From Haliotis rufescens (taxonomy: Eukaryota): DNA of 64,000 nt. The notes under the pieces are model-generated. The model did no database searches. It was not told where the DNA came from and saw only the letters and a program-made list of their open reading frames with translations. The position numbers and the translations under genes were made by a program. Shown here in pieces: positions 7,812-63,367 of this stretch; the stretch's first letter is position 1, and each line of letters starts with the position of its first letter. The stretch covers positions 48,112,001 to 48,176,000 of the forward strand of contig NW_025964334.1 of assembly GCF_023055435.1 (NCBI RefSeq), read 5' to 3'.

Positions 7812-8990
7812 ATGGCCGCTTTCCTGTCAATATTTAGACGTGGTTTGGATCAGGACATGGTGGACAATGTGAACGGATTCTGGTCGGTTCTCCTCTTGGC
7901 CCTCTGCTCGGCTGGGGCATTTCTAGTGCGATACATTACTGATCCTACAAGCTGCTGGTACCCTTCACAATTTGAGGCATCACAGGTTTCATACTCCGAC
8001 CATGCCTGCTTCCTCACGGATGTCTTTTACCACCCTGCCACAAGTGATGTCCCAAAGTCAAGGCATGATCGTGTCCCCTCCTACCATCTCTGGATACCAC
8101 TCATACTCTTCTTCCAAGCCCTCGCTTTCAAAGTACCAAACATCATCTGGAACAGTGGCAAGCACTTCCTCACTTTCAATATGGACGAAACTGTCGAGTC
8201 CCTAAAAAGTGTACAACTGACCAATGCTGAGAATCGACAGGCCATTTTCAGTGATGCAGCCCGAGTATTTGGAAGTCTACTGAGGAGGAATCGATTCTTT
8301 CTGGCGTTGTTGTACCTATTTGTGAAGATTCTCTCATGTGTCAATCTCATAGCACAGTTTATGTTCCTCACGATATACTTCAGACAATACCTGGCAATCA
8401 GGGTAGGATCCTATGCTGGTTTGGATATGGGCTCCATCGTAAAACCATTACTTGTGAAACATGTTGTTTGCGACATCGATGTGTATATGATGACAAATTT
8501 TCAAAAATACACCGTTCAGTGCACTCTGCCAATCACCGAAATCTATGAGAAGATGTTCATATTCCTGTGGTACTGGGTCTTCCTCCTGGCTGTCATCACA
8601 ATCCTAAACCTTGTCCTGTGGGCAGGATTTCTCTTCATACCGTTCCTAAGAGATGGCAGGATAGCTGCCCACATCAACGATGCCAAAGGATCTCGCCCTG
8701 ACGAACCCAATGTAACTCGTTTCATCAGAAGTTTCCTCGGAATCGATGGTGTGCTTGTCCTGTCCATGATATCCCGGAATTCCAGCGAGTTAGTTGCAGC
8801 AGATCTCACCCAACATTTGTACCGGGTGTTTCAGGAGAAGGAAGAAGATCTTCAGAATCAGCAACATCTCTGCACAGGAGAACCGGAATGTGGCATTGTC
8901 CGAGATGAAGCAACAGGAGCCGTGGCAGCTTTACCAATGAGCGATCTACCCTCTGGTGCCGAAAAGTCGGAGAAGGCCCCGATTGTGTGA
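7812..8990 (+). CDS. Innexin paralogue 1 (392 aa)
   Basis: Four TM segments, EL1 Cys48/Cys66 (SCWYP...HACF), innexin signature variant SYHLWIPLILFFQALAFKVP, EL2 Cys220/Cys237 (CDID...TVQCTLP..EKMFIFLWYW), and post-TM4 FLGIDGVLVLSMI. A splice-acceptor-like tttcag lies 6 nt before the ATG. Confidence 0.95.
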   Translation: MAAFLSIFRRGLDQDMVDNVNGFWSVLLLALCSAGAFLVRYITDPTSCWYPSQFEASQVSYSDHACFLTDVFYHPATSDVPKSRHDRVPSYHLWIPLILFFQALAFKVPNIIWNSGKHFLTFNMDETVESLKSVQLTNAENRQAIFSDAARVFGSLLRRNRFFLALLYLFVKILSCVNLIAQFMFLTIYFRQYLAIRVGSYAGLDMGSIVKPLLVKHVVCDIDVYMMTNFQKYTVQCTLPITEIYEKMFIFLWYWVFLLAVITILNLVLWAGFLFIPFLRDGRIAAHINDAKGSRPDEPNVTRFIRSFLGIDGVLVLSMISRNSSELVAADLTQHLYRVFQEKEEDLQNQQHLCTGEPECGIVRDEATGAVAALPMSDLPSGAEKSEKAPIV

Positions 8991-19997: not shown

Positions 19998-21176
19998 ATG
20001 GCCGCTTTCCTGTCAATATTTAGACGTGGTTTGGATCAGGACATGGTGGACAATGTGAACGGATTCTGGTCGGTTCTCCTCTTGGCCCTCTGCTCGGCTG
20101 GGGCATTTCTAGTGCGATACATTACTGATCCTACAAGCTGCTGGTACCCTTCACAATTTGAGGCATCCCAGGTTTCATACTCCGACCATGCCTGCTTCCT
20201 CACGGACGTCTTTTCCCAACCTGACACAAGTGATGTCCCCAAACTAAGGCATGATCGTGTCCCTTCCTACCATCTCTGGATACCACTCATACTCTTCTTC
20301 CAAGCCCTCGCTTTCAAAGTACCAAACATCATCTGGAACAGTGGCAAGCACTTCCTCACTTTCAACATGGACGAAACTGTCGAGTCCATGAATTGTGTAC
20401 AACTGACCAATGCTGAGAATCGACAGGCTATTTTCAGTGATGCAGCCCGAGTATTTGGAAGTCTACTGCGAAGAAATCGATTCTTTCTGGCGCTGTTGTA
20501 CCTATTTGTGAAGATTCTCTCTTTTGTCAATCTCATAGCACAGGTTATGTTCCTCACGATATACTTCAGACAAAACCTGGCAATCAGGGTAGGATCCTAT
20601 GCTGGTTTGGATATGGGCTCCATCGTAAAACCATTACTTGTGAAACAGGTATTTTGCGACATCGGTGTGTATATTATGGCAAATCTTCGAACATACACCG
20701 TTCAGTGCACTCTGCCAATCACCGAAATCTATGAGAAGATGTTCATATTCCTGTGGTACTGGGTCTTCCTCCTGGCTGTCCTCACAATCCTAAACCTTGT
20801 CCTGTGCGCAGGATTTCTCTTCATACCGTTCCTAAGAGATGGCAGGATAGCTGCCCACATCAACGCTGCCAAAGGATCTCGCCCTGACGAACCCAAAGTA
20901 ACTCGTTTCATCAGAAGTTTCCTCGGAATCGATGGTGTGCTTGTCCTGTCCATGATATCCCGGAATTCCAGCGAGTTAGTTGCAGCAGATCTCACCCAAC
21001 ATTTGTACCAGGTGTTTCAGGAGAAGGAAGAAGATCTTCAGAATCAGCGACATCTCTGCACAGGAGAACCGGAATGTGGCATTGTCCGAGATGAAGCAAC
21101 AGGAGCCGTGGCAGCTTTACCAATGAGCGATCTTCCCTCTGGCGCCGAAAAGTCGGAGAAGGCCCCGATTGTGTGA
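19998..21176 (+). CDS. Innexin paralogue 2 (392 aa)
   Basis: Same motifs as copy 1. Start placed at the ATG after the ttacag acceptor (19991) rather than at the ORF-track start 19956. Confidence 0.95.
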   Translation: MAAFLSIFRRGLDQDMVDNVNGFWSVLLLALCSAGAFLVRYITDPTSCWYPSQFEASQVSYSDHACFLTDVFSQPDTSDVPKLRHDRVPSYHLWIPLILFFQALAFKVPNIIWNSGKHFLTFNMDETVESMNCVQLTNAENRQAIFSDAARVFGSLLRRNRFFLALLYLFVKILSFVNLIAQVMFLTIYFRQNLAIRVGSYAGLDMGSIVKPLLVKQVFCDIGVYIMANLRTYTVQCTLPITEIYEKMFIFLWYWVFLLAVLTILNLVLCAGFLFIPFLRDGRIAAHINAAKGSRPDEPKVTRFIRSFLGIDGVLVLSMISRNSSELVAADLTQHLYQVFQEKEEDLQNQRHLCTGEPECGIVRDEATGAVAALPMSDLPSGAEKSEKAPIV

Positions 21177-31589: not shown

Positions 31590-32768
31590 ATGGCCGCTTT
31601 CCTGTCAATATTTAGACGTGGTTTGGATCAGGACATGGTGGACAATGTGAACGGATTCTGGTCGGTTCTCCTCTTGGCCCTCTGCTCGGCTGGGGCATTT
31701 CTAGTGCGATACATTACTGATCCTACAAGCTGCTGGTACCCTTCACAATTTGAGGCATCACAGGTTTCATACTCCGACCATGCCTGCTTCCTCACGGACG
31801 TCTTTTCCCAACCTGCCACAAGTGATGTCCCCAAACTAAGGCATGATCGTGTCCCTTCCTACCATCTCTGGATACCACTCATACTCTTCTTCCAAGCCCT
31901 CGCTTTCAAAGTACCAAACATCATCTGGAACAGTGGCAAGCACTTCCTCACTTTCAACATGGACGAAACTGTCGAGTCCATGAAATGTGTACAACTGACC
32001 AATGCTGAGAATCGACAGGCTATTTTCAGTGATGCAGCCCGAGTATTTGGAAGTCTACTGAGAAGAAATCGATTCTTTCTGGCGCTGTTGTACCTATTTG
32101 TGAAGATTCTCTCATGTGTCAATCTCATAGCACAGTTTATGTTCCTCACGATATACTTCAGACAAAACCTGGCAATCAGGGTAGGATCCTATGCTGGTTT
32201 GGATATGGGCTCCATCGTAAAACCATTACTTGTGAAACAGGTATTTTGCGACATCGGTGTGTATATTATGGCAAATCTTCGAACATACACCGTTCAGTGC
32301 ACTCTGCCAATCACCGAAATCTATGAGAAGATGTTCATATTCCTGTGGTACTGGGTCTTCCTCCTGGCTGTCCTCACAATCCTAAACCTTGTCCTGTGCG
32401 CAGGATTTCTCTTCATACCGTTCCTAAGAGATGGCAGGATAGCTGCCCACATCAACGCTGCCAAAGGATCTCGCCCTGACGAACCCAAAGTAACTCGTTT
32501 CATCAGAAGTTTCCTCGGAATCGATGGTGTGCTTGTCCTGTCCATGATATCCCGGAATTCCAGCGAGTTAGTTGCAGCAGATCTCACCCAACATTTGTAC
32601 CAGGTGTTTCAGGAGAAGGAAGAAGATCTTCAGAATCAGCGACATCTCTGCACAGGAGAACCGGAATGTGGCATTGTCCGAGATGAAGCAACAGGAACCG
32701 TGGCAGCTTTACCAATGAGCGATCTACCCTCTGGCGCCGAAAAGTCGGAGAAGGCCCCGATTGTGTGA
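31590..32768 (+). CDS. Innexin paralogue 3 (392 aa)
   Basis: Five aa differences from copy 2; EL2 identical to copy 2. Confidence 0.95.
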   Translation: MAAFLSIFRRGLDQDMVDNVNGFWSVLLLALCSAGAFLVRYITDPTSCWYPSQFEASQVSYSDHACFLTDVFSQPATSDVPKLRHDRVPSYHLWIPLILFFQALAFKVPNIIWNSGKHFLTFNMDETVESMKCVQLTNAENRQAIFSDAARVFGSLLRRNRFFLALLYLFVKILSCVNLIAQFMFLTIYFRQNLAIRVGSYAGLDMGSIVKPLLVKQVFCDIGVYIMANLRTYTVQCTLPITEIYEKMFIFLWYWVFLLAVLTILNLVLCAGFLFIPFLRDGRIAAHINAAKGSRPDEPKVTRFIRSFLGIDGVLVLSMISRNSSELVAADLTQHLYQVFQEKEEDLQNQRHLCTGEPECGIVRDEATGTVAALPMSDLPSGAEKSEKAPIV

Positions 32769-37635: not shown

Positions 37636-38814
37636 ATGGCCGCTTTCCTGTCAATATTTAGACGTGGTTTGGATCAGGACATGGTGGACAATGTGAACGG
37701 ATTCTGGTCGGTTCTCCTCTTGGCCCTCTGCTCGGCTGGGGCATTTCTAGTGCGATACATTACTGATCCTACAAGCTGCTGGTACCCTGCACATTTAACT
37801 GCATCCCACGTTTCATACTCCGACCATGCCTGCTTCCTCACGGACGTCTTTTACCAACCTTACACAAGTTATGTCCCCAAATCAAGTCATGAACGTGTCC
37901 CCTCCTACCATCTCTGGATACCACTCATACTCTTCTTCCAAGCCCTTGCTTTCAAAGTACCAAACATCATCTGGAACAGTGGCAAGAACTTCCTCACTTT
38001 CAACATGGACGAAACTGTCGAGTCCATGAAATGTGTACAACTGACCAATGCTGAGAATCGCCAGGCCATTTTCAGTGATGCAGCCCGAGTATTTGGAAGT
38101 CTACTGAGAAGAAATCGATTCTTTCTGGCGCTGTTGTACCTATTTGTGAAGATTCTCTCATGTGTCAATCTCATAGCACAGTTTATGTTCCTCACGATAT
38201 ACTTCAGACAATACCTGGCAATCAGGGTAGGATCCTATGCTGGTTTGGATATGGGCTCCATCGTAAAACCATTACTTGTGAAACATGTTTTCTGCGACAT
38301 CGATGTGTATATGTTGAAAAATCTTCGAAAATTCACTGTTCAGTGCATTCTGCCAATCACCGAAATCTATGAGAAGATGTTCATATTCCTGTGGTACTGG
38401 GTCTTCCTCCTGGCTGTCATCACAATCCTAAACCTTGTCCTGTGGGCAGGATTTCTCTTCATACCGTTCCTAAGAGATGGCAGGATAGCTGCCCACATCA
38501 ACGCTGCCAAAGGATCTCGCCCTGACGAACCCAATGTAACTCGTTTCATCAGAAGTTTCCTCGGAATCGATGGTGTACTTGTCTTGGCAATGATATCCCG
38601 GAATTCCAGCGAGTTAGTTGCAGCAGATCTCACCCAACATTTGTACCAGGTGTTTCAGGAGAAGGAAGAAGATCTTCAGAATCAGCGACATCTCTGCACA
38701 GGAGAACCGGAATGTGGGATTGTCCGAAATGAAGCAACAGGAACCGTGGCAGCTTTACCAATGAGCGAGCTACCCTCTGGTCCTGAAAACTCGGAGAAGG
38801 CCCCGATTGTGTGA
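37636..38814 (+). CDS. Innexin paralogue 4 (392 aa)
   Basis: Same architecture, with the most divergent EL1 (PAHLTASH...YQPYTSYVPKSSHE). ATG follows the ttacag acceptor at 37629. Confidence 0.95.
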   Translation: MAAFLSIFRRGLDQDMVDNVNGFWSVLLLALCSAGAFLVRYITDPTSCWYPAHLTASHVSYSDHACFLTDVFYQPYTSYVPKSSHERVPSYHLWIPLILFFQALAFKVPNIIWNSGKNFLTFNMDETVESMKCVQLTNAENRQAIFSDAARVFGSLLRRNRFFLALLYLFVKILSCVNLIAQFMFLTIYFRQYLAIRVGSYAGLDMGSIVKPLLVKHVFCDIDVYMLKNLRKFTVQCILPITEIYEKMFIFLWYWVFLLAVITILNLVLWAGFLFIPFLRDGRIAAHINAAKGSRPDEPNVTRFIRSFLGIDGVLVLAMISRNSSELVAADLTQHLYQVFQEKEEDLQNQRHLCTGEPECGIVRNEATGTVAALPMSELPSGPENSEKAPIV

Positions 38815-45917: not shown

Positions 45918-47096
45918 ATGGCCGCTTTCCTGTCAATATTTAGACGTGGTTTGGATCAGGACATGGTGGACAATGTGAACGGATTCTGGTCGGTTCTCCT
46001 CTTGGCCCTCTGCTCGGTAGGGGCATTTCTAGTGCGATACATTACTGATCCTACAAGCTGCTGGTACCCTTCACAATTTGAGGCATCACAGGTTTCATAC
46101 TCCGACCATGCCTGCTTCCTCACGGATGTCTTTTCCCAACCTGACACAAGTGATGTCCCAAAGTCAAGGCATGATCGTGTCCCCTCCTACCATCTCTGGA
46201 TACCCCTCATACTCTTCTTCCAAGCCCTTGCTTTCAAAGTACCAAACATCATCTGGAACAGTGGCAAGCACTTCCTCACTTTCAACATGGACGAAACTGT
46301 CGAGTCCCTGAAAAAAATACAACTGACCAATGCTGAGAATCGCCAGGCTATTTTCAGTGATGCAGCCCGAGTATTTGGAAGTCTACTGAGAAGAAATCGA
46401 TTCTTTCTGGCGCTGTTGTACCTATTTGTGAAGATTCTCTCATGTGTCAATCTCATAGCACAGTTTATGTTCCTCACGATATACTTCAGACAATACCTGG
46501 CAATCAGGGTAGGATCCTATGCTGGTTTGGATATGGGCTCCATCGTAAAACCATTACTTGTGAAACAGGTTTTTTGCGACATCGGTGTGAGAATTTTGGA
46601 AACTCTTCGAACATACACTTTTCAGTGCACTCTGCCAATCACCGAAATCTATGAGAAGATGTTCATATTCCTGTGGTACTGGGTCTTCCTCCTGGCTGTC
46701 ATCACAATCCTAAACCTTGTCCTGTGGGCAGGATTTCTCTTCATACCGTTCCTAAGAGATGGCAGGATAGCTGCCCACATCAACGCTGCCAAAGGATCTC
46801 GCCCTGACGAACCCAATGTAACTCGTTTCATCAGAAGTTTCCTCGGAATCGATGGTGTACTTGTCTTGTCCATGATATCCCAGAATTCCAGCGAGTTAGT
46901 TGCAGCAAATCTCACCCAACATTTGTACCTGGTGTTTCAGGAGAAGGAAGAGGAACTTCAGAATCAGCGACATCTCTGCACAGGAGAACCGGAATGTGGC
47001 ATTGTCCAAAATGAAGCAACAGGAACCATGGCAGCTTTACCAATGAGCGATCTACCCTCTGGTCCTGAAAAGTCGGAGAAGGACCAGATTGTGTGA
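45918..47096 (+). CDS. Innexin paralogue 5 (392 aa)
   Basis: Same architecture, with the most divergent EL2 hairpin (CDIGVRILETLRTYTFQC) and C-tail (…EKDQIV). Confidence 0.95.
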   Translation: MAAFLSIFRRGLDQDMVDNVNGFWSVLLLALCSVGAFLVRYITDPTSCWYPSQFEASQVSYSDHACFLTDVFSQPDTSDVPKSRHDRVPSYHLWIPLILFFQALAFKVPNIIWNSGKHFLTFNMDETVESLKKIQLTNAENRQAIFSDAARVFGSLLRRNRFFLALLYLFVKILSCVNLIAQFMFLTIYFRQYLAIRVGSYAGLDMGSIVKPLLVKQVFCDIGVRILETLRTYTFQCTLPITEIYEKMFIFLWYWVFLLAVITILNLVLWAGFLFIPFLRDGRIAAHINAAKGSRPDEPNVTRFIRSFLGIDGVLVLSMISQNSSELVAANLTQHLYLVFQEKEEELQNQRHLCTGEPECGIVQNEATGTMAALPMSDLPSGPEKSEKDQIV

Positions 47097-52628: not shown

Positions 52629-53429
52629 CAGTAGACTCTGCGTAATCCGACATCTGTCGAAAGCAACATTCTGTCTAATCAGACACAGCCCTGCGTTGTC
52701 ATAAAAAATTACACTGTGAAATCCGACATCTGTCTATTGCGAATTCCGACCCTGTTTTGTGGCCCCCATGAGCAAATCCACGCTCTGTAATCCGACATCA
52801 AAACAAGACCAACGACCTTCAATAAACACTCAATTGTAGCCGCGGAGGATTTGTACATGTATTTAGTAAACAACCTTCAATAAACACTCAATTGGGATCG
52901 TGGAGGATTTGTACATGCAATTGTAAACAACCTTCAATAAACACTCAATTGTAGCCGTGGGGGATCTGTACATGTATTTAGTAAACAACCTTCAATAAAC
53001 ACCCAACTGTAATCGTGGGGGATTTGTACATGTATTTAGTAAACAACCTTCAATAAACACTCATTTGGGATCGTGGGGGATGTGTACATGCATTTGTAAA
53101 CAACCTTCAATAAACACTCAATTGTAGTCGTAGAGGATTTGTACATGTATTTAGTAAACAACCTTCAATAAACACTCAATTGGGGTCGTGGGGGGATGTG
53201 TACATGTTTTCAGTAAACAATATTCAATAAACATTCAATTAAAGCTTAACAAGGATAATCTACATTGGACAAAGTAACTGTTGATGTTTGGTAAAACACG
53301 AGGGTTAATCTTTAATTATTTCCTTAATTAAGTGATAGTCTGGATTTCAGACTGAGTGAATCATTGAGAACAATCTAATCCGACATTTCCCTCGGCCCCG
53401 AGCAGTGACGGGTTACACAGAGTGTACTG
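52629..53429. mobile_element. Tc1/mariner-pogo type non-autonomous element carrying a 57-59-bp tandem array
   Basis: TA|CAGTAGACTCTGCGTAATCCG ... CGGGTTACACAGAGTGTACTG|TA, subterminal 'atccgac' motifs, and an internal array at ~52812-53240 (7 full units plus a partial). Confidence 0.85.
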
Positions 53430-53469: not shown

Positions 53470-54300
53470 CGATTATGGACATATCAAACAACAGGCTTTT
53501 CTTAAAGACTTGTGAAGCTTGCCACGGAGAATATAGGGAATAGCAGAGTTATCGATCGTTGCTGTCAGCAGGTGCTCGTTTACAGACACGAGAGGGCGCT
53601 TTAACCGAAGGACGCTTCCTGTTAACAAATTAGCAAGGATTCGTCTGCACGGAAGCATAATTTGGTTCTGAAAATGTCCATTTAGATATTTTTGGCTGTC
53701 TGGGGTGTATTGGAATAAAAAAGCTCTTATCACATATGCCCATTTGAATTGAAAACCAAAACGAGTGTTATTTTTTGCCCACTTCCAGAAGATTCTCGGA
53801 AAAGACTGTAAAGTGGTCGGTGTTTGTTTTGATTGTCGAACAATACATTGACTTCTCTGCTTTCACCAGAACAGATAATATGGACAAGGCTGCCAGAGCT
53901 GTTAGAAGGTATATATAAATATGTTTTTCATCCATGTGGTAGTCTTCCTATGGCTGTTTGTTTTCAGCGTAGTGCTTTGTTGGAATTCTCATGTAGGAAG
54001 GACGATGGACATTGTTGACATACTCCGGTCGCTTTTGCGATGACGTTTAGAATACCTGTAGTGACAGGTGTTTTGCTAATCATGTCAGAATTTGTACGAC
54101 TTTTTCTAGTATTATGGCGATAAGACCACAGTTGAAAAATGTACGTAATCGCGTCAATGGATTGTAACATAACACTTGATGTCCAGATACACATATCTCA
54201 GATCTGTTATATTCGTGTATCCATACAGGACGTGTGGGAGTCTAAGCAGTACACACCGTGATTCTGAAGTGCTGCAGCATTCATCGTATTGATGATAATG
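53470..54300 (-). mobile_element. Highly decayed RTE-like LINE RT remnant
   Basis: Fragments such as PVTTGIL and QKYL...LLTATID...LHKSL loosely match RTE RT motifs. Confidence 0.35.
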
Positions 54301-55975
54301 ACTTTGAAAACATGTGGTCAAATGAATACGATGTTATATTGTCCTTTATGCTTGGAGGGTATATTGATTACCATCCCTTCAGGATTGGGAAGTAATGCAT
54401 GTTATTACTCTCAAAATATCTATTAATAGAGATATGTCTTCTCGTCACATGTGAAGATCCCCATACTTGCTGTAAAAGGCGACTATGCTTATCGTAAGAG
54501 GTGACTAATGGGATGGGGTGGTTAGTTGACAAACAACTCTCCATACTTGAAAAGTAATGAAGCGTTCCAACAATAGAATGACGGCACAGATGGGTTTAAA
54601 ATCTGTTCCTGAGTTGTTTCTGGTGTTAACATACCTAAAATTGTAATCTTCAGTATTGGAGGAAATAAAGACAATCAAACACTCCAGCAGGGGTGTACTG
54701 TACCAGCTATTACATTACAAATGTGAAATCTCATTGCATAATCCAAATGGGACAAACTTAAATTAAACAATTGTCTTGTCATGAACATGGAAAATTTCAA
54801 CATAATTGTTGCCAATTGTGTTATATAATAGGTATTGTATCGTGATTCAACATACTCAAGTATTATGTACATGATTATGATTTTGAGGAGATGGTGTGGT
54901 AGGCATATTGGGACACCTCTAGTGTAGTGCTAACATTTCCTGACAAGAGTCAATTTTGCTCATGATCTTTGGAATTTGTGCAACATGAAAAGAGGTTGTG
55001 ATGTTGGAAAAGAATATTGGCAACAACTGGTCCTTGGCTATACTTGGTTGCCAGCCAGTGCATGTTTCAATATAGGTAGAGTTTCAATTTCTTACATCAT
55101 GTATATTTGAGTAATCCATGGTTGAAAATGAAACACTTGGTACCCATGCAGGCCTGGCTAAGGATAGGTCTTCATCAACCCATGCTTGCCGTAAGAGGCG
55201 ACTATGCTTGTAGTGACAGGTGGCTAACAGGATCGAGTGGTCGGTTCGGTGACTTGGTTGATGCATGTCATCATGCCACAATTGCCTAGATCGATGCTCA
55301 TGACATCAATCCCCGGATTGTCTGGTCCAGACTCGCAGTCCTCCATCTGTCAGGCCGAGTACAGTGAAGTGTGAGACAAATACTAGAACTTGAGAACATT
55401 TCTGGCCTGAACAATCATGTGTTTTCATAGTAAATTCAGAACATGCTGAATGGGATAGATGTATTTTGTACAGCAGGTTGTGATGGTAATGTGGGGTTAA
55501 TTTTTGTAATCCTTTTTCCACCGTCAGTATGTTGAAAGACTACTGTTATTTAAAGTTACACTGTGTTTGGGGATGATGAAGTTCTTGTATTAAACTCAGT
55601 GCATACACTGACCCTCAGCATGATAAGACTCTCATATCATTGTTCAGCAGTTATTTACAGAACTTCTGAAAGTCAAGGTAGACACTCAGACCAATACATG
55701 GCTCAATGACTCTCTATAAGTTGAGATGGGTATATGTTTTTTCACCAATACTCTCACCCTCTTCAACTGCATCTTTTAGTGATGGCAGGGCTTTGAACAT
55801 GGTCTAAAAATATGGATGCGTTACATTAATTATGGATGAATAAGCCTGATAAGGCTATCCTAGTTTGCCTGGAAACTTTGAGCAAGAAAATCATGGGCAT
55901 GTGGACATTCCAAACTTTAACTGTGTTTCTTGTCTAACTTCTAATCCTGCTGATAGAAACATCAGTTAATAGAAT

Positions 55976-56049
55976 ATGGATGCTGTGGCTGAATTATCAA
56001 TAAGGATTCAAACGTCCCTTCGATGCTCTTCATACAAACTCTTTAATGA
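55976..56049 (+). CDS. Probable first coding exon of the Pil1/Lsp1-like BAR gene (MDAVAELSIRIQTSLRCSSYKLFN-E)
   Basis: ATG at 55976 and GTATGT donor at 56050. It ends in phase 2, matching the next exon. Confidence 0.55.
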
Positions 56050-57708
56050 GTATGTAACATGTTTTGTAAATAATATCATCCTATGTGTTTCTTTATTTTT
56101 TATATTCGTTCATGGGTATGATTTAGAGAATTATGTTTCAGGCATGTTTCTGAGTGGGCTATTTATGTTAAACTGCAGCATGGTATCGCAGTGAGCTAGC
56201 ACATGAAAAACACACATAACTTCGGATTAGTGATAAGCAGCCATGCACACACATGCAGGCAAATCTATCTATTTGCCTATTTATGCTATGTTTAACTTTC
56301 TGTTTTCTGTCATTTGTTTCCAAATTGCGCACTAATCATGCTCATATGTTGAGGTCCAGGTGTCATTGGCATAATTAATTTCTTGGCATCATATAACAAT
56401 ATTTAGGCAATGTTTTTGTATTACCTGGTTAAGGGATCCGCCAACTCTAAATTTTACACATGTGGAATAAAATTGAAATTATTATTTTTTCTTCCCCCTT
56501 TTCTTTAAAAATAGCATGAGCCCATCTTTTATAAGGCATAACTCAACTGGTATAAAAGAGTATGTGCAGAATTATTTAAACTTTCCCCACTGGTTTGGTA
56601 GTTGTGGTTTTTTTCTTTTGTAGTTGTGTATTATTTTGCTTACCATTAAAAAATAAGGCCTGGAGGTGGTCCTTGGGTTTTGTGCTGTAAGTGTTTAGTC
56701 TAAGGGCCTCAAATCTTTAATTTTCAAAATTGTAGTTATCAGGTTATGACAACTTATGTATTATACCACAGTGATTAATCTACCATTCTCATTGGTCGGT
56801 ATTCTAACAATGGCTTTGGAAAACATGGTATTGATCTGGTAGAGTTCCTGAAATTGAAATTCTTGATCATTATACAACGGTTCTGAATACCTTGGAGTAA
56901 TGTTTAATTTTTGGCAAACATGGAAATGAGCCTTGTCTATCACATCTGCCCGAGGCAAGAGAGTTAACAGACTATAGACGTCCAGTTTCCCCCCTTGCCG
57001 AACTAGGCTGGTATTATTGAGTTACATTTTGGTTGGACTAATGAGTCTTATGCATAGTCCAATCAAAATCGTGCAATGAAATCAAAATGCTGTTCCTAAA
57101 CTCTGATTTTGGTTGATTGCAGGATTTGCAAAGCATGTGCACCGCCAACTCGTTGTCAACACATATTTCTCAAATCTTTTCATGTTTTTAATCTAGGCGC
57201 TCATGTGATTTGATGCACTTCCCAATGTAAGACCTGTTTTATCACAGAACAGATCTTGATTATTGATCAGATTGTCTTGACTGGGCACCGAGGTGGAATC
57301 TGATTGGTCCATAGGAGAGGCATAGAAGGGACATAACTTGTAATAGCCAGTTCGGCAGGGGTGGAAACTGGACTTTTAAAGTCAGTTGACTCACTTGCCT
57401 CGGGAAGATGTGTATATCACTAGAAATGAGAAAGGGCTTTAATACCAATTTTCAAGTTTTAAGAAATGAGGGATAGTTAGTATTATGGAAATATTTGTGA
57501 ACACTAGTGAAGTATCTAACTAACAGGGCTAGTATCAGCTTGATTGGTATTAGGACATGTATGCTGCATACTTTACCAAAACACCTTTGCACGTTTATGT
57601 TGTAAAGGGTAGTAGACTGAAGATGCTTTATCAAATCAGTGTTGGAAAATGATGCTGTAGACAATGATAAATACATTATCAAATTATTCTTTGTTTGATT
57701 ATTTTCAG

Positions 57709-57824
57709 GAGTAGTGTTAAGTTGCTTTCTCTGAATGGAGGTCATGCTGACCTGAATGTGCTCATATCTGAGGTGAAGGACATGCGGAATACAGCCAAGG
57801 CTTTCATGAATGCCCAGTCAGCTG
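57709..57824 (+). CDS. Exon of Pil1/Lsp1-like gene (SSVKLLSLNGGHADLNVLISEVKDMRNTAKAFMNAQSA)
   Basis: attttcag acceptor, GTAGGT donor, phases 2/1. Confidence 0.8.
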
Positions 57825-58446
57825 GTAGGTACACCCAGGAAGCCCTAGACACTGTGTAGACAGCACTACCCATGGAGATCTGGGTTAGAACTGCTCCTCG
57901 GCAACCCATTCTGTTTATAAGAGGCGCCAACGGGATTGGATGGTCAGACTCACCAACTTGGTTGATGCATGTCATTGTACCACAATTGCATAGATCGATG
58001 CTCATAATGTCATTCGAGTCTGGACCATACAATCCAGTGATGGACATCATGAGCATCGATCCCAGCAATCGGGATACGATGACATGCATCAACCAAGTCA
58101 GCGAGTCTGGCCACCCGATCTCGTTAGTCGCCTCTTTCGACAAGCATAGTCGCCTGTTACGGCAATCATGGGTTGCTGAAGACCTATTCTACGCCAGATC
58201 TTCACGGGTCCTAAGCATACCGTAAGTTTGTAGTGATCATGGTCATTATTCACATTTTATACATGACAATCAAGAGTTATCTTTGTCCAGATTGTCTGAT
58301 ATCACATTTGTGATAATTGTAAATATTACTGGGAAAGTGAGAGGCCAGGTTTCGATATTACTTAATGATTGTAGTTCAACTTGACTTTTAGCAAACAGTT
58401 ATTTATTAATGATGAACCAATTTGAGAATGACATGTTTTGTTGTAG

Positions 58447-58499
58447 CTTCACAAGATCTCCTGAAATGGACTGCACATGAAGACAATCGTGCTATACAG
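58447..58499 (+). CDS. Exon of Pil1/Lsp1-like gene (ASQDLLKWTAHEDNRAIQ)
   Basis: ttgttgtag acceptor, GTAGGC donor, phases 1/0. Confidence 0.8.
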
Positions 58500-59245
58500 G
58501 TAGGCAGCATTTGCAATCCAGTGACATCATGCTGGAGAAAAACATGGCTCCCCTGAATGCTTTTGTTGTGAGGCAACTTGGGGCACCGGTGGCCAAGTCG
58601 TCTTAGGCACCGCAATTCACTGTGCAGAGTTGCATCCCTTGGGCATGCCAGGAACCTATGATCGTGGTTCAAATCCCAGTTCTCCCTGATTATGTTCCTA
58701 GGTTTGTCAGCACCATACCCGTGCTTGTGGGTTTCACTAAAGTTGTAAACATCTAAGACCTGCATTACTTTGGGCTTGCATCAAGCTGTCATGCTGTGAT
58801 ATCACTGGAATACTGTTCAAAGCATCTGCATCACCATGTCTGTGAATTGCTCGGTGATGAGTGATCACAGTCACTTTCAGACTTCAATATGAATAAGAAA
58901 GAGCCTTTGTTTTGGGGACCCAACCAACCCTGCCGAAAAAGTTTTTTGTCAGTATATACACATAAATCTTGGGATTACAAAACGTCTATTACTCCAGAGC
59001 AGTAAATCTTGTATACTGTCATTAGATCATAAAATCTTTAGATTTTCAACAGAAGTCCTCTTCACTGTCAACCATCCATGATTAGTTGTGCCACTAATGA
59101 TATCTCCCTTCCCAAGCCTCTAGTGCATGTGCCAGGTGGGATACCCCACTTCTTTCCAACATCTACACCTAGATGCAGAATATTGGGGGTCTCAATTTAA
59201 GGAACTGGAGTTGAGCTGCACCAGGTGCATGTTGACATGAAAAGC

Positions 59246-59340
59246 TGGTTGCACCAGACTAAACAAGGTTGCACCAGACTAAACCAGGTTGCACCAGAAT
59301 AAACCAGGTTGCACCAGAACAAACCAGGTTGCACCCTGGT
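59246..59340. repeat. 20-bp tandem repeat (ggttgcaccagactaaacca), ~5 units
   Basis: Read directly from the sequence. Confidence 0.9.
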
Positions 59341-59752
59341 ACCATTAATTTATCAAAGTTGAAACACAGACGCATAAACTAGTCTAAATAAGCAAAATCT
59401 CAGATTTATGATGACTGTGTAATGTGTCATGAATTACACATAGTGCGATATTGACTGTGTTCAAAGGTTGATGTGTGGACAAGTTAGAGGTAGTCAAATT
59501 CTCAAATATGAATATTTTGGACATGCACTTATGTATGTCGACATAAATATTGGGTTGCATTTTTCAATAATAGATTGCATTGATGCATGTTTTATATTGC
59601 TTAATTGAGCCGTTTAACTAGATGAAGAATATTGGAGAAGGGAAGGGGGGATTACTCCAGACGTATTAAAGTTATTCTTTGAACTAATAACAATGACAAC
59701 TATTGTTTGATGATTCTTAAAATACAAACCTCTATAACATCATTGCCAAAAT

Positions 59753-60638
59753 ATACCCGAGGGATCGCTGGGTTCTGACATCTAGTAAAACCTTGGATAC
59801 CCGAGGGATCGCTGGGTTCTGACATCTAGTAATACCTTGGATACCCGAGGGATCGCTGGGTTCTGACATCTAGTAAAACCTTGGATACCCGAGGGATTGC
59901 TGGGTTCTGACATCTAGTAATACCTTGGATACCCGAGGGATTGCTCGGTTCTGACATCTAGTAATACCTTGGATACCCGAGGGATCGCTGGGTTCTGACA
60001 TCTAGTAAAACCTTGGATACCCGAGGGATCGCTGGGTTCTGACATCTAGTAATACCTTGGATACCCGAGGGATTGCTGGGTTCTGACATCTAGTAATACC
60101 TTGGATACCCGAGGGATTGCTGGGTTCTGACATCTAGTAATACCTTGGATACCCGAGGGATTGCTGGGTTCTGACATCTAGTAATACCTTGGATACCCGA
60201 GGGATCGCTGGGTTCTGACATCTAGTAAAACCTTGGATACCCGAGGGATCGCTGGGTTCTGACATCTAGTAATACCTTGGATACCCGAGGGATTGCTGGG
60301 TTCTGACATCTAGTAATACCTTGGATACCCGAGGGATTGCTGGGTTCTGACATCTAGTAAAACCTTGGATACCCGAGGGATCGCTGGGTTCTGACATCTA
60401 GTAATACCTTGGATACCCGAGGGATTGCTGGGTTCTGACATCTAGTAATACCTTGGATACCCGAGGGATTGCTCGGTTCTGACATCTAGTAAATACCTTG
60501 GATACCCGAGGGATTGCTTGGTTCTAACATCTAGTAATACCTTGGATACCCGAGGGATTGCTCGGTTCTGACATCTAGTAAATACCCTGGATACCCGAGG
60601 GATTGCTCCGTTCTGACATCTAGTAAATACCTTGGATA
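59753..60638. repeat. 44-bp minisatellite, ~20 units, intronic
   Basis: Unit gatacccgagggat(c/t)gctgggttctgacatctagtaa(t/a)accttg, with no spacers. Confidence 0.98.
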
Positions 60639-60721
60639 GTTAGGAGACCCTCACCTTCCTGACTTCCATCCAACTTGGGACTCTTCCCTCATGGTCACAA
60701 TGCGCCATTTTGTGTTGTCAG

Positions 60722-60785
60722 GATGTTGCCAACCAGCTGGCTGAACTCAATCTAGTATGGACAGAAGTACAACGAGAATTTATTG
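60722..60785 (+). CDS. Exon of Pil1/Lsp1-like gene (DVANQLAELNLVWTEVQREFI)
   Basis: ttgtcag acceptor, GTGGGT donor, phases 0/1. Confidence 0.8.
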
Positions 60786-61123
60786 GTGGGTACACATTTT
60801 CAAAACATTTACCGTTTGTTGCAGCCATTTTCCATTCCAGCTCTCAACGTGTGCGCCTAAAGTATTAACAATATCATCGGGGTAGAATAGGTCTTCAGCA
60901 ACCCATGCTTGCCGTAAAAGGCAAGTAACAGGTTTAGGTGGTCTGGCTCGCTGACTTGGTTGATGCACGTCATCAAATCCCAATCACAGAGATGAAAGTC
61001 CATGATGTGTCTGGTCCAGACTTGTTTGTTTACAGACTATTGTGATATAGCTGGAATATTGCTGAGTGCTGTGTTATACAACAAGCCAACAATCAATAAG
61101 ATGTGAAATGACCTATTTTGCAG

Positions 61124-61203
61124 AGCACATCAAGGAGTACAAACATATGTATGAGATGGTCCTGGAGGGAGAGAAGCATGTTGCCCATGCCAAAACCAAC
61201 TTT
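61124..61203 (+). CDS. Exon of Pil1/Lsp1-like gene (EHIKEYKHMYEMVLEGEKHVAHAKTNF)
   Basis: ttttgcag acceptor, GTAAGT donor, phases 1/0. Confidence 0.82.
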
Positions 61204-62027
61204 GTAAGTTACGTCTGTCGTAATTTATCTTGTCTTCAAGATGTATTCTTTTTTGTAAAGTCTGGGGCCCTAAGCCTCACAGCGATCTTTGCGCTAAGAT
61301 GATCGTATCTCCCATACTAGGTTTATTATTGTAATAGAACTAAGATCACTTTGTGAAACAGACCCTGGATTGGTTGGAAGGTAGGAGAAAAACAAATATA
61401 AAAGACATTTTTATATTTGTGTCTGTTCTTCAAAACATTATCTGAATATATTGTATCGCCATGTTTGTCAGGTCTGCAGTACTCATAGTGTGCACATTTA
61501 CATTTGGTCAGCACGCATGTCTGCATTCAAAAAATATTTTGTGTATATTTAACTGCTTTCCCAAATGTTATTAGTGTCAGTGGAATGGTAAGCCCATTTC
61601 TTTTGAAGTATTCTACTTATGGTCTTACTGATAAGTTTTTGGCAGACGTATCATCAGGATAAATATTGTGATGTAACCAATTCATATCAAATAATATGAT
61701 GAGTAAAAAAGCAGTAGTTGTTTCAGCACTGGTAGGCACTGAGAGTCAGAAGGTATTCAAATGTACTAGAACCAGTACCGTATTCAACATAATAAGCGCC
61801 CACAGGGATATTTGCTAATATATATTGCCAAGTGAAGAATCCCAATTAGCACCCCTTCCGATTGATCAGTGTACATAACACTTATTGAATCGTGTATAAT
61901 ACGCACTCGTGTGTTATATGCACCCTTAATTATTACGTCGAATACGGTGTTTAATATTTCATAAGCAGTACCGTTTTCCTGTGTTGTCGTGTCCAGTTTG
62001 TAGTAAATATACATGCCTCTCTCCCAG

Positions 62028-62084
62028 GCTTCGTGTGAGCAGCGTGAGGTGAAGATTAGGAAGGAATTAAAGAAGGCCTTCAAG
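62028..62084 (+). CDS. Exon of Pil1/Lsp1-like gene (ASCEQREVKIRKELKKAFK); no stop reached, so the gene continues downstream
   Basis: ctctctcccag acceptor, GTAGGC donor, phases 0/0. Confidence 0.8.
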
Positions 62085-62503: not shown

Positions 62504-63367
62504 ATTGATACCATATTGTTATGCCATGAAATGCAGTTTTATTTCATATAGCCAATTCCTTATCTCACCTGCTCAGAAACAATTGCAGAAATGTTGTTCT
62601 TTTATGTGTTTAAGGCAAGATCCATATTTTTACATGTGTTACCAACCTAAATATCGCAAAAGTGGAAAAAGTATTTCAAACTTGTCTTGGGTGAAGTGTG
62701 TCAGTAATACAATACTTGACAACGTGGACACAATGTGTGGATAATGACTTCTTTATTTACTGTAAAGGTAACGTTTCAGTATAGATCCTTATACCGTTAT
62801 CAAGCAAAGCAAGGCTGCTTGACAACAATATAAGGATCAACAATGAAACGTCAATCAAGGCCAGCCTGCTTGACAACAGTATAAGTATCTGTACCTAACG
62901 TCGCCTGTACAGTATTAAAGAAGTTGTTATCCATACATTGTGTCCACTTTGTCATCCGTTAACTTCTAAGTAATGCCTTTCAAACAATTCATTGCCATAC
63001 CTGTTTTTAGAAAGCAACATCTGCTGAGCTACAGAGTTTGGAAGGAAGGTTATCTCAAGCTGAAAGAGCCAAAGACTTAGCTCAGGTGGAAGGTAAGCTG
63101 TAACAATGAGTTGTTGGTTAGGATGAGAATCTCCTGCAGCAAGTACCAACAGGGAAGGATGCTGCTCGACAGTAGGGTGAGCTGAAACTGGGCAGTTTAC
63201 CTTTCACACAGAAAACAAGTTTCTGGACTCTTGAGAAAATGATGAGAGCAGAGAAACTCTTGCCCCAGGAGTAGGTATGTGTGACAGGAGGCAAAGTGCG
63301 CAGTTTCTTCTGCCACCATGTTTAGCACATATATCAGTCTTCGACTTGGGCATCTTCAGAAACAAAT

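Follow-up and report, generated by a model that had tools for sequence, protein, structure and literature searches.

A probable divergent holozoan branch of the Pil1/Lsp1 family, encoded by an intron-rich gene of the abalone Haliotis rufescens

The closest described relatives of the gene considered here are the eisosome BAR proteins Pil1 and Lsp1 of Saccharomyces cerevisiae (Pfam family PF13805; PDB entries 3PLT, 8QB7, 8QB8 and 8QB9). In the accessible parts of two reviews (PMC13312728, PMC6723945), eisosomes are described from fungi, algae and lichens. Olivera-Couto et al. 2011 (PMC3128537) report significant matches confined to fungi, and according to Aggad et al. 2023 (PMC10010689) Pil1 and Lsp1 lack direct orthologues in animals. 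The available portion of Kefauver et al. 2024 (PMC11324527) assigns to Pil1 an amphipathic helix at residues 39–48, residues R126, K130 and R133 that bind phosphatidylinositol 4,5-bisphosphate (PI(4,5)P2), phosphatidylserine residues R43, K66 and R70, sterol residues F33, Y40, F42 and F50, and lattice contacts made by residues 1–8, by residues 171–186 with 145, and by Y155/Y158. Here we analyzed a gene on the forward strand of a 64,000-nucleotide stretch of the Haliotis rufescens genome (the window, whose first letter is position 1), which had been noticed in a reading of the letters alone (the sequence-only reading). The results show a real gene with a corrected 5′ end, whose product very probably belongs to a divergent holozoan Pil1/Lsp1 branch in which the lipid pocket has been remodelled and a motif added to the tail.

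A literature search covering mostly titles and the beginnings of abstracts in journals outside subscription found no report of an animal or holozoan Pil1 member, apart from one weak tapeworm table row for PF13805. Some database records are already tagged PF13805, under "uncharacterized" or unrelated automatic labels. Members of the family also carry misleading automatic names, such as rickA, myosin-I heavy chain-like, tropomyosin-like and zinc-binding alcohol dehydrogenase domain, and these names may be the reason why the family was overlooked.

Membership of the Pil1/Lsp1 family

We compared the predicted protein of 326 amino acids with the Pfam families and with the sequences of the PDB. Its top Pfam family was Pil1 (PF13805), with an E-value (E) of 9.3e-6 and a score of 25.8 bits relative to a cut-off of 27. 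Pil1 also ranked first in 11 of 12 close relatives (above the 27-bit cut-off in 5/12) and was matched at E<=0.01 by 47 of 88 members, for which the 15 Pfam families listed included no other BAR family. Among 58 distant members, 11 matched Pil1 at E<=0.001, and none matched FAM92/CiBAR, arfaptin, SNX-BAR, N-BAR or F-BAR at the same threshold. When profiles were searched against the PDB, that of the close relatives placed Lsp1 at rank 1. A profile of 42 named animal proteins found Lsp1 at 8e-11 and 2e-10 and Pil1 at 4e-6 and 5e-6, over residues 57–268, with no other BAR chain in its 16 rows and a designed coiled coil (0.007) as the next match. The addition of unicellular holozoans to the profile brought Lsp1 to 2e-14 and left the first unrelated row at 0.12. 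The Capsaspora protein CAOG_01508 alone matched Pil1 in the PDB at 1e-14, Pil1 in Pfam at 8.7e-24 (84.9 bits) and the animal profile at 3e-53; judged by these matches, the Capsaspora member is a bridge between the animal family and Pil1. At the level of sequence, the Pil1 signal is weak in single proteins and clear once diverse proteins are pooled. Single exons searched against Pfam gave no match (0/5), and PF13805 searched against the genome in six frames gave none either, the exons being too short in both cases. The Pil1-like pattern in helices 1 and 2 that the sequence-only reading had pointed out was confirmed by the alignments to PDB chains of Lsp1 and Pil1, and the choice it left between Pil1 and other BAR families fell to Pil1 by top Pfam family and by the PDB profile.

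The AlphaFold model of the protein has a mean predicted local distance difference test score (pLDDT) of 83, with 219 residues above 90, and consists of helices at residues 23–57, 63–131, 137–205 and 224–248 followed by a disordered tail. Foldseek ranked Lsp1 and Pil1 chains 1 to 6 (2e-8 to 7e-7), followed by SNX1-SNX5 (1e-5). In the VIA comparison, Lsp1 gave a Z of 17.9 and a root-mean-square deviation of 2.2 over 207 aligned residues (model residues 18–246), ahead of FAM92A (Z 14.2, deviation 2.4, 192 aligned) and arfaptin (Z 13.4). Only the Pil1/Lsp1 rows aligned through the fourth helix, to residue 246; the other listed rows ended by residue 221, and a second comparison agreed with this for the BAR rows. 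The structural check proposed with the sequence-only reading therefore places Lsp1 and Pil1 ahead of SNX-BAR and FAM92A (by Z). Additional leads came from the ESM Atlas, namely an Lsp1 cluster at 0.88, a cnidarian cluster at 0.88 with Pil1 in 31% of its members, and the Capsaspora protein with Lsp1 at a template modeling score (TM-score) of 0.80. When one nematode protein was folded without an alignment, the model was poor (pLDDT 52) and had no PDB match below E 1.3. Overall, we conclude that the abalone protein very probably belongs to the Pil1/Lsp1 family.

The range of the family was examined in three protein searches. The search with residues 1–245 returned 97 proteins among 1197 candidates, the named rows, at 41–82% identity, being from molluscs, a brachiopod, a nemertean, chelicerates, crustaceans and insects. 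The full-library search matched 628 proteins at E<=0.001, of which 150 were listed, and the third search, with the distant alignment as query, gave 88 rows. Twenty distant members included 16 with organism names: seven nematodes, a priapulid, three arthropods, two sponges, two Salpingoeca species and Capsaspora owczarzaki. Orthologues were found in four Haliotis species. Among the named rows of the matches listed, none came from fungi, deuterostomes, Drosophila or C. elegans, which does not in itself show absence. In a tree of 57 rows chosen from the 173 aligned, all of them holozoan and none from fungi or other BAR families, four gastropods (support 100/97), nematodes (99/98) and choanoflagellate-like rows (100/99) formed groups, and non-bilaterians with unicellular holozoans were split from bilaterians (100/99); deep branching among the bilaterians was not settled. 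The range across Holozoa, and not a clade in a tree, suggests that the gene probably descends vertically from the ancestor shared by animals and fungi (the opisthokont ancestor).

Gene structure and splicing

The protein is encoded by 11 coding exons separated by ten introns, all of them GT-AG (10/10). Their translation is identical to XP_046329067.1 (Haliotis rufescens LOC124112918 isoform X1), the isoform to which exon 2 as query also gave a 100% match. Seven coding exons lie inside the window and four more within the following 5 kb of the contig (G000:C556), as follows.

53594..53908, + strand: exon 1, 5′ untranslated region plus 29 coding bases from the ATG at 53880, encoding the larger part of a predicted N-terminal helix that is basic and amphipathic
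57709-57824, + strand: exon 2, remainder of the N-terminal segment and the greater part of BAR helix 1; K33 corresponds to Pil1 K66
58447-58499, + strand: exon 3, end of helix 1 including W56 (Pil1 W89)
60722-60785, + strand: exon 4, start of helix 2
61124-61203, + strand: exon 5, part of helix 2 that corresponds to the area of the PI(4,5)P2 pocket in Pil1; K94 corresponds to R126, and E98 and L101 replace K130 and R133
62028-62084, + strand: exon 6, tip of helix 2, rich in lysine and arginine
63011-63092, + strand: exon 7, first half of helix 3
48176795-48176919, 48177760-48177820, 48179090-48179191 and 48180522-48180733 (contig positions, beyond the window): exons 8–11, remaining helix 3, Y-x-G loop, helix 4, disordered tail with PPPPY, and stop

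Splicing was checked with contigs of four sequencing runs placed at 98% likeness, for which 13 joints were listed; a first placement at 90% likeness was swamped by repeats. No run is recorded as RNA, and the contigs were taken as transcript-derived because they skip GT..AG introns. Spliced contigs cover all six junctions in the window, and a single contig of 914 bases covers all seven exons there. The joints between exons 2 and 3, 3 and 4, and 4 and 5 were each found in three of the four runs (with one differing letter in the 2–3 joint of one run), and those between exons 5 and 6 and between 6 and 7 in one run each. Contigs of exon 1 start at 53594-53598, and its GT..AG joint to exon 2 was present in two of the four runs (X8 and X14) and, in the placement at 90%, in run X13. 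All genome matches to the protein (8/8) fall at the present locus, which indicates a single locus.

The sequence-only reading had joined six in-frame GT-AG exons. Five of these (57709-57824 to 62028-62084) are borne out by spliced contigs, with the joints of exons 2–6 seen in one to three of the four runs, and the sixth, 55976-56049, placed first, is not. That segment lies in intron 1, no joint begins at 56049 among the 13 listed, a contig of run X1 (55871-56187) runs unspliced across the donor, and exon 2 is joined instead to the exon ending at 53908, which supplies an N-terminus common to the relatives. On paper, ATG 55976 and donor 56049 can be joined in frame to exon 2, and the N-terminal 24 residues of the peptide first proposed derive from this unsupported exon. 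A low-depth contig of the placement at 98% covers 55840-56029, a further 1441 joints of the placement at 90% stand outside those listed, and 55976-56049 may conceivably serve as a minor alternative first exon. The view of an intron-rich, host-resident gene was upheld by the ten introns, the spliced contigs, the single genomic locus and the relatives across Holozoa.

At the acceptor of the last exon, two AG appear to lie three bases apart, which would explain the pairs of isoforms of 326 and 325 residues in four Haliotis species. Intron 3 contains a minisatellite at 59753-60638 (44-bp unit, 20 copies, 96% matches), and a tandem repeat at 52811-53240 (58-bp unit, 7.4 copies) ends about 350 bases upstream of exon 1. 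Elsewhere in the window, five tandem, intronless, intact open reading frames of 392 amino acids on the + strand encode innexins (7812-8990, 19998-21176, 31590-32768, 37636-38814 and 45918-47096). They are 92–99% identical over the first 370 residues, the one tested matched Pfam Innexin at E 2.4e-54, and fragments resembling long interspersed nuclear elements lie between the copies. The array looks like a recent local expansion.

Functional residues and the tail motif

The abalone protein shares with Pil1/Lsp1 of S. cerevisiae the three-helix BAR core, the Y-x-G loop, the fourth helix, the tryptophan that ends helix 1, counterparts of K66 and R126, a likely counterpart of R43, a short N-terminal segment that may form a basic amphipathic helix, and a disordered tail. 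Unlike Pil1/Lsp1, it lacks the equivalent of Pil1 residues ~1–30, has E and L in place of K130 and R133, carries a longer, basic helix-2 tip without Y155/Y158 and an added PPxY motif, and is encoded by a single-copy gene in an animal without a cell wall. We mapped these positions through a holozoan profile alignment onto 173 family proteins of at least 240 residues, near-identical isoforms included. The counterpart of K66, abalone K33, is K/R in 85% of 156 rows, and that of R126, abalone K94, in 79% of 163 rows. The pair R9/R10, K/R in 98% of 127 and 128 rows, stands at the place expected for R43 by distance, outside the hidden Markov model alignment. W56, the counterpart of W89, is kept in 159/161 rows, and the loop before helix 4 keeps P209 (171/171), Y221 (156/172) and G223 (153/171). 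Residues 1–11 have a hydrophobic moment of 0.54 and a net charge of +3 (p 0.002 versus shuffles). In helix 3 the pattern L..AE.....A is kept (L147 in 144/170 rows, A150 in 139, E151 in 112, A157 in 153), and the R145 column is variable.

Other features of the yeast lattice and lipid pocket are absent. The chain begins at about Pil1 residue 30–34, since its start lies 24 residues before L25 in 85/117 rows and model residue 1 aligns with Pil1 residue 30; the first lattice contact (Pil1 1–8) is therefore missing. At the positions of Y155 and Y158, K/R is found in 152/167 and 161/168 rows, leaving this tip contact without a counterpart, and the four sterol-binding aromatics of Pil1 have no clear aromatic counterparts in the family alignment. 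In the PI(4,5)P2 pocket of the animal proteins, K/R occupies the R126, K130 and R133 positions in 79%, 9% and 3%, the abalone protein, like most animal members, keeping one of the three residues and the Capsaspora protein all three.

The PPxY motif occurs in 163 of 171 tails, compared with a mean of 17.8 (maximum 31) in 200 shuffles, lies a median of 19 residues past the domain, and is present in choanoflagellate rows. Capsaspora keeps K130/R133 and has no PPxY, and the choanoflagellates differ from it; the loss of K130/R133 and the gain of PPxY thus coincide in choanoflagellates plus animals. Many bilaterian members also end in an acidic stretch, then A-M/V-G-G and a few hydrophobic residues such as A-K-I (45/173 by one pattern), which we take to resemble a PDZ-binding C-terminus.

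Proposed function and alternative explanations

We propose that the abalone protein is a vertically inherited relative of the Pil1-type BAR proteins that acts as a dimer to curve or coat anionic membranes and whose conserved PPxY motif recruits WW proteins. We assign a probability of roughly 0.6 to this statement as a whole; a membrane-shaping role taken separately is probable, and eisosome-like furrows are doubtful. As judged from the family, two chains would form a curved BAR dimer whose concave face binds anionic lipid. Residues 1–11 may fold into a basic amphipathic helix and, like Pil1 residues 39–48, insert into the inner leaflet, and R9/R10, K33 and K94 (Pil1 R43, K66 and R126), together with basic residues specific to the family, would bind phosphatidylserine or phosphoinositides. 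The dimers could align through helix 3 into a coat looser or more dynamic than the yeast lattice; as the protein lacks two of the lattice contacts and the greater part of the PI(4,5)P2 pocket, this coat is probably looser or held by alternative contacts, for instance at the basic tip of helix 2. The tail with its PPxY motif might recruit a NEDD4-type ubiquitin ligase or another WW protein, and the coat would then couple membrane shape to the sorting of membrane proteins, acting as curvature scaffold and adaptor.

Several observations weigh against this proposal. The abalone protein itself scores below the Pfam Pil1 cut-off (25.8 vs 27 bits) and, searched alone against PDB sequences, gives 0 rows at E<=10; the profile of close relatives finds Lsp1 at just E 0.94, 47 of the 58 distant members have no Pil1 match at E<=0.001, and structural identity to Lsp1/Pil1 is 13–19%. 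The position of K130 is E/D in 141/164 rows (abalone E98) and that of R133 is L in 140/168 (abalone L101), and the R70 position is K/R in just 9% of 158 rows, although a neighbouring position is basic in 89%. The helix moment reached p <0.05 in two of the six windows tested, and the N-terminus has a pLDDT of ~50. The nematode branch is long and weakly placed, and a tree of holozoans only cannot separate orthology from ancient paralogy. The Capsaspora protein lacks PPxY, and the class of partner proposed for this motif follows the general pattern in which PPxY is bound by WW domains, usually those of NEDD4-type ligases.

If the match to Pil1 reflected only the generic likeness of helical bundles, the protein would be an ordinary BAR or coiled-coil protein of the FAM92/CiBAR, arfaptin, SNX-BAR or amphiphysin type. 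Its score below the Pil1 cut-off, the Z of 14.2 for FAM92A, its slightly higher Foldseek query TM-score (0.52 vs 0.49 for Lsp1/Pil1) and the database labels "F-BAR", "tropomyosin-like" and "myosin-I heavy chain-like" on some members would fit this, and FAM92A/CiBAR, arfaptin, SNX-BAR and amphiphysin/endophilin do share its BAR fold (Z 11–14). However, no other BAR family was matched among the Pfam families and PDB rows listed, with an E-value gap of 3 to 12 orders; helix 4 aligns to Pil1/Lsp1 alone, the rows of those families having no aligned fourth helix; the abalone protein has no PX, PH or SH3 domain; and the Capsaspora member is an unambiguous Pil1 match. The sequence searches, the helix 4 alignment and the Capsaspora bridge largely refute this explanation, which we consider very unlikely. 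Even less credible is a horizontal transfer from a fungus or contamination, an idea suggested by literature that describes Pil1/Lsp1 as restricted to fungi. Against it stand the ten GT-AG introns, the 61-Mb contig with abalone repeats, the orthologues in four Haliotis species and across Holozoa, and a tree that broadly follows the species; contamination was rejected.

More is claimed if the protein is taken as a true eisosome builder that assembles static, furrow-shaped lattices at the plasma membrane that buffer tension under cuticle, shell epithelium or another extracellular coat, and maybe the meisosome folds of nematodes. The whole-domain match to Pil1/Lsp1 including helix 4, the counterparts of K66 and, probably, R43 (phosphatidylserine side) and of R126, and the L..AE pattern of helix 3, which adjoins the second lattice contact (Pil1 171–186), all speak for such a role. 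In the accessible text of PMC11324527, moreover, the yeast K130A/R133A mutant still forms fewer, elongated eisosomes, and nematodes, which carry the gene, have membrane folds rich in PIP2 (phosphatidylinositol bisphosphate) that the available part of PMC10010689 names after eisosomes. Yet the contact of residues 1–8 cannot form in a chain that starts at ~Pil1 30–34, Y155/Y158 face lysines, the R145 column is variable, the sterol aromatics are without clear counterparts, K130 and R133 have no counterpart in the animal proteins, and no C. elegans member is among the named rows. In addition, according to the accessible text of PMC12470953, the fungal Pil1-family proteins Meu14 and Ssp1 act at the edge of the spore membrane and not in eisosomes; membership of the family thus does not imply eisosomes, and we regard an eisosome-building role as possible but unlikely. 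These sporulation-specific proteins, Meu14 of S. pombe and Ssp1 of S. cerevisiae, resemble the abalone protein as divergent Pil1-family domains outside eisosomes, and suggest an alternative in which it works away from the plasma membrane, where an internal or developmental membrane, as of a gamete, cyst or secretory compartment, grows at a highly curved rim. Such a role was, in the same text, taken twice independently by Pil1-family proteins in yeasts, and the remodelled PI(4,5)P2 pocket allows another lipid preference. A single-copy gene at 50–80% identity across protostomes nevertheless fits a general cell function, and the spliced contigs come from runs of at least four studies (tissues unrecorded). 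Compared by description, Meu14 and Ssp1 are products of ascomycete duplications, whereas the abalone genome yielded no Pil1-like locus other than ours, whose family spans Holozoa. We consider this role improbable and retain the proposal of a membrane-coating dimer with a WW-recruiting tail.

On the present evidence, the Pil1 family probably dates from the opisthokont ancestor, and invertebrate cell biology gains a single-copy, well-conserved BAR family not studied before. The evidence also offers a candidate gene for the meisosome membrane folds, whose shaping protein is unnamed in the accessible part of PMC10010689, and a natural experiment on which Pil1 features a lattice needs. More speculatively, and somewhat less likely than the eisosome-building role alone, a core protein of eisosomes might have been overlooked in most invertebrates, sponges and choanoflagellates, where it would build furrows or folds of the plasma membrane that buffer tension, possibly meisosomes, and the PPxY motif, dating from the ancestor of choanoflagellates and animals, might link stretch to WW ubiquitin or Hippo signalling.

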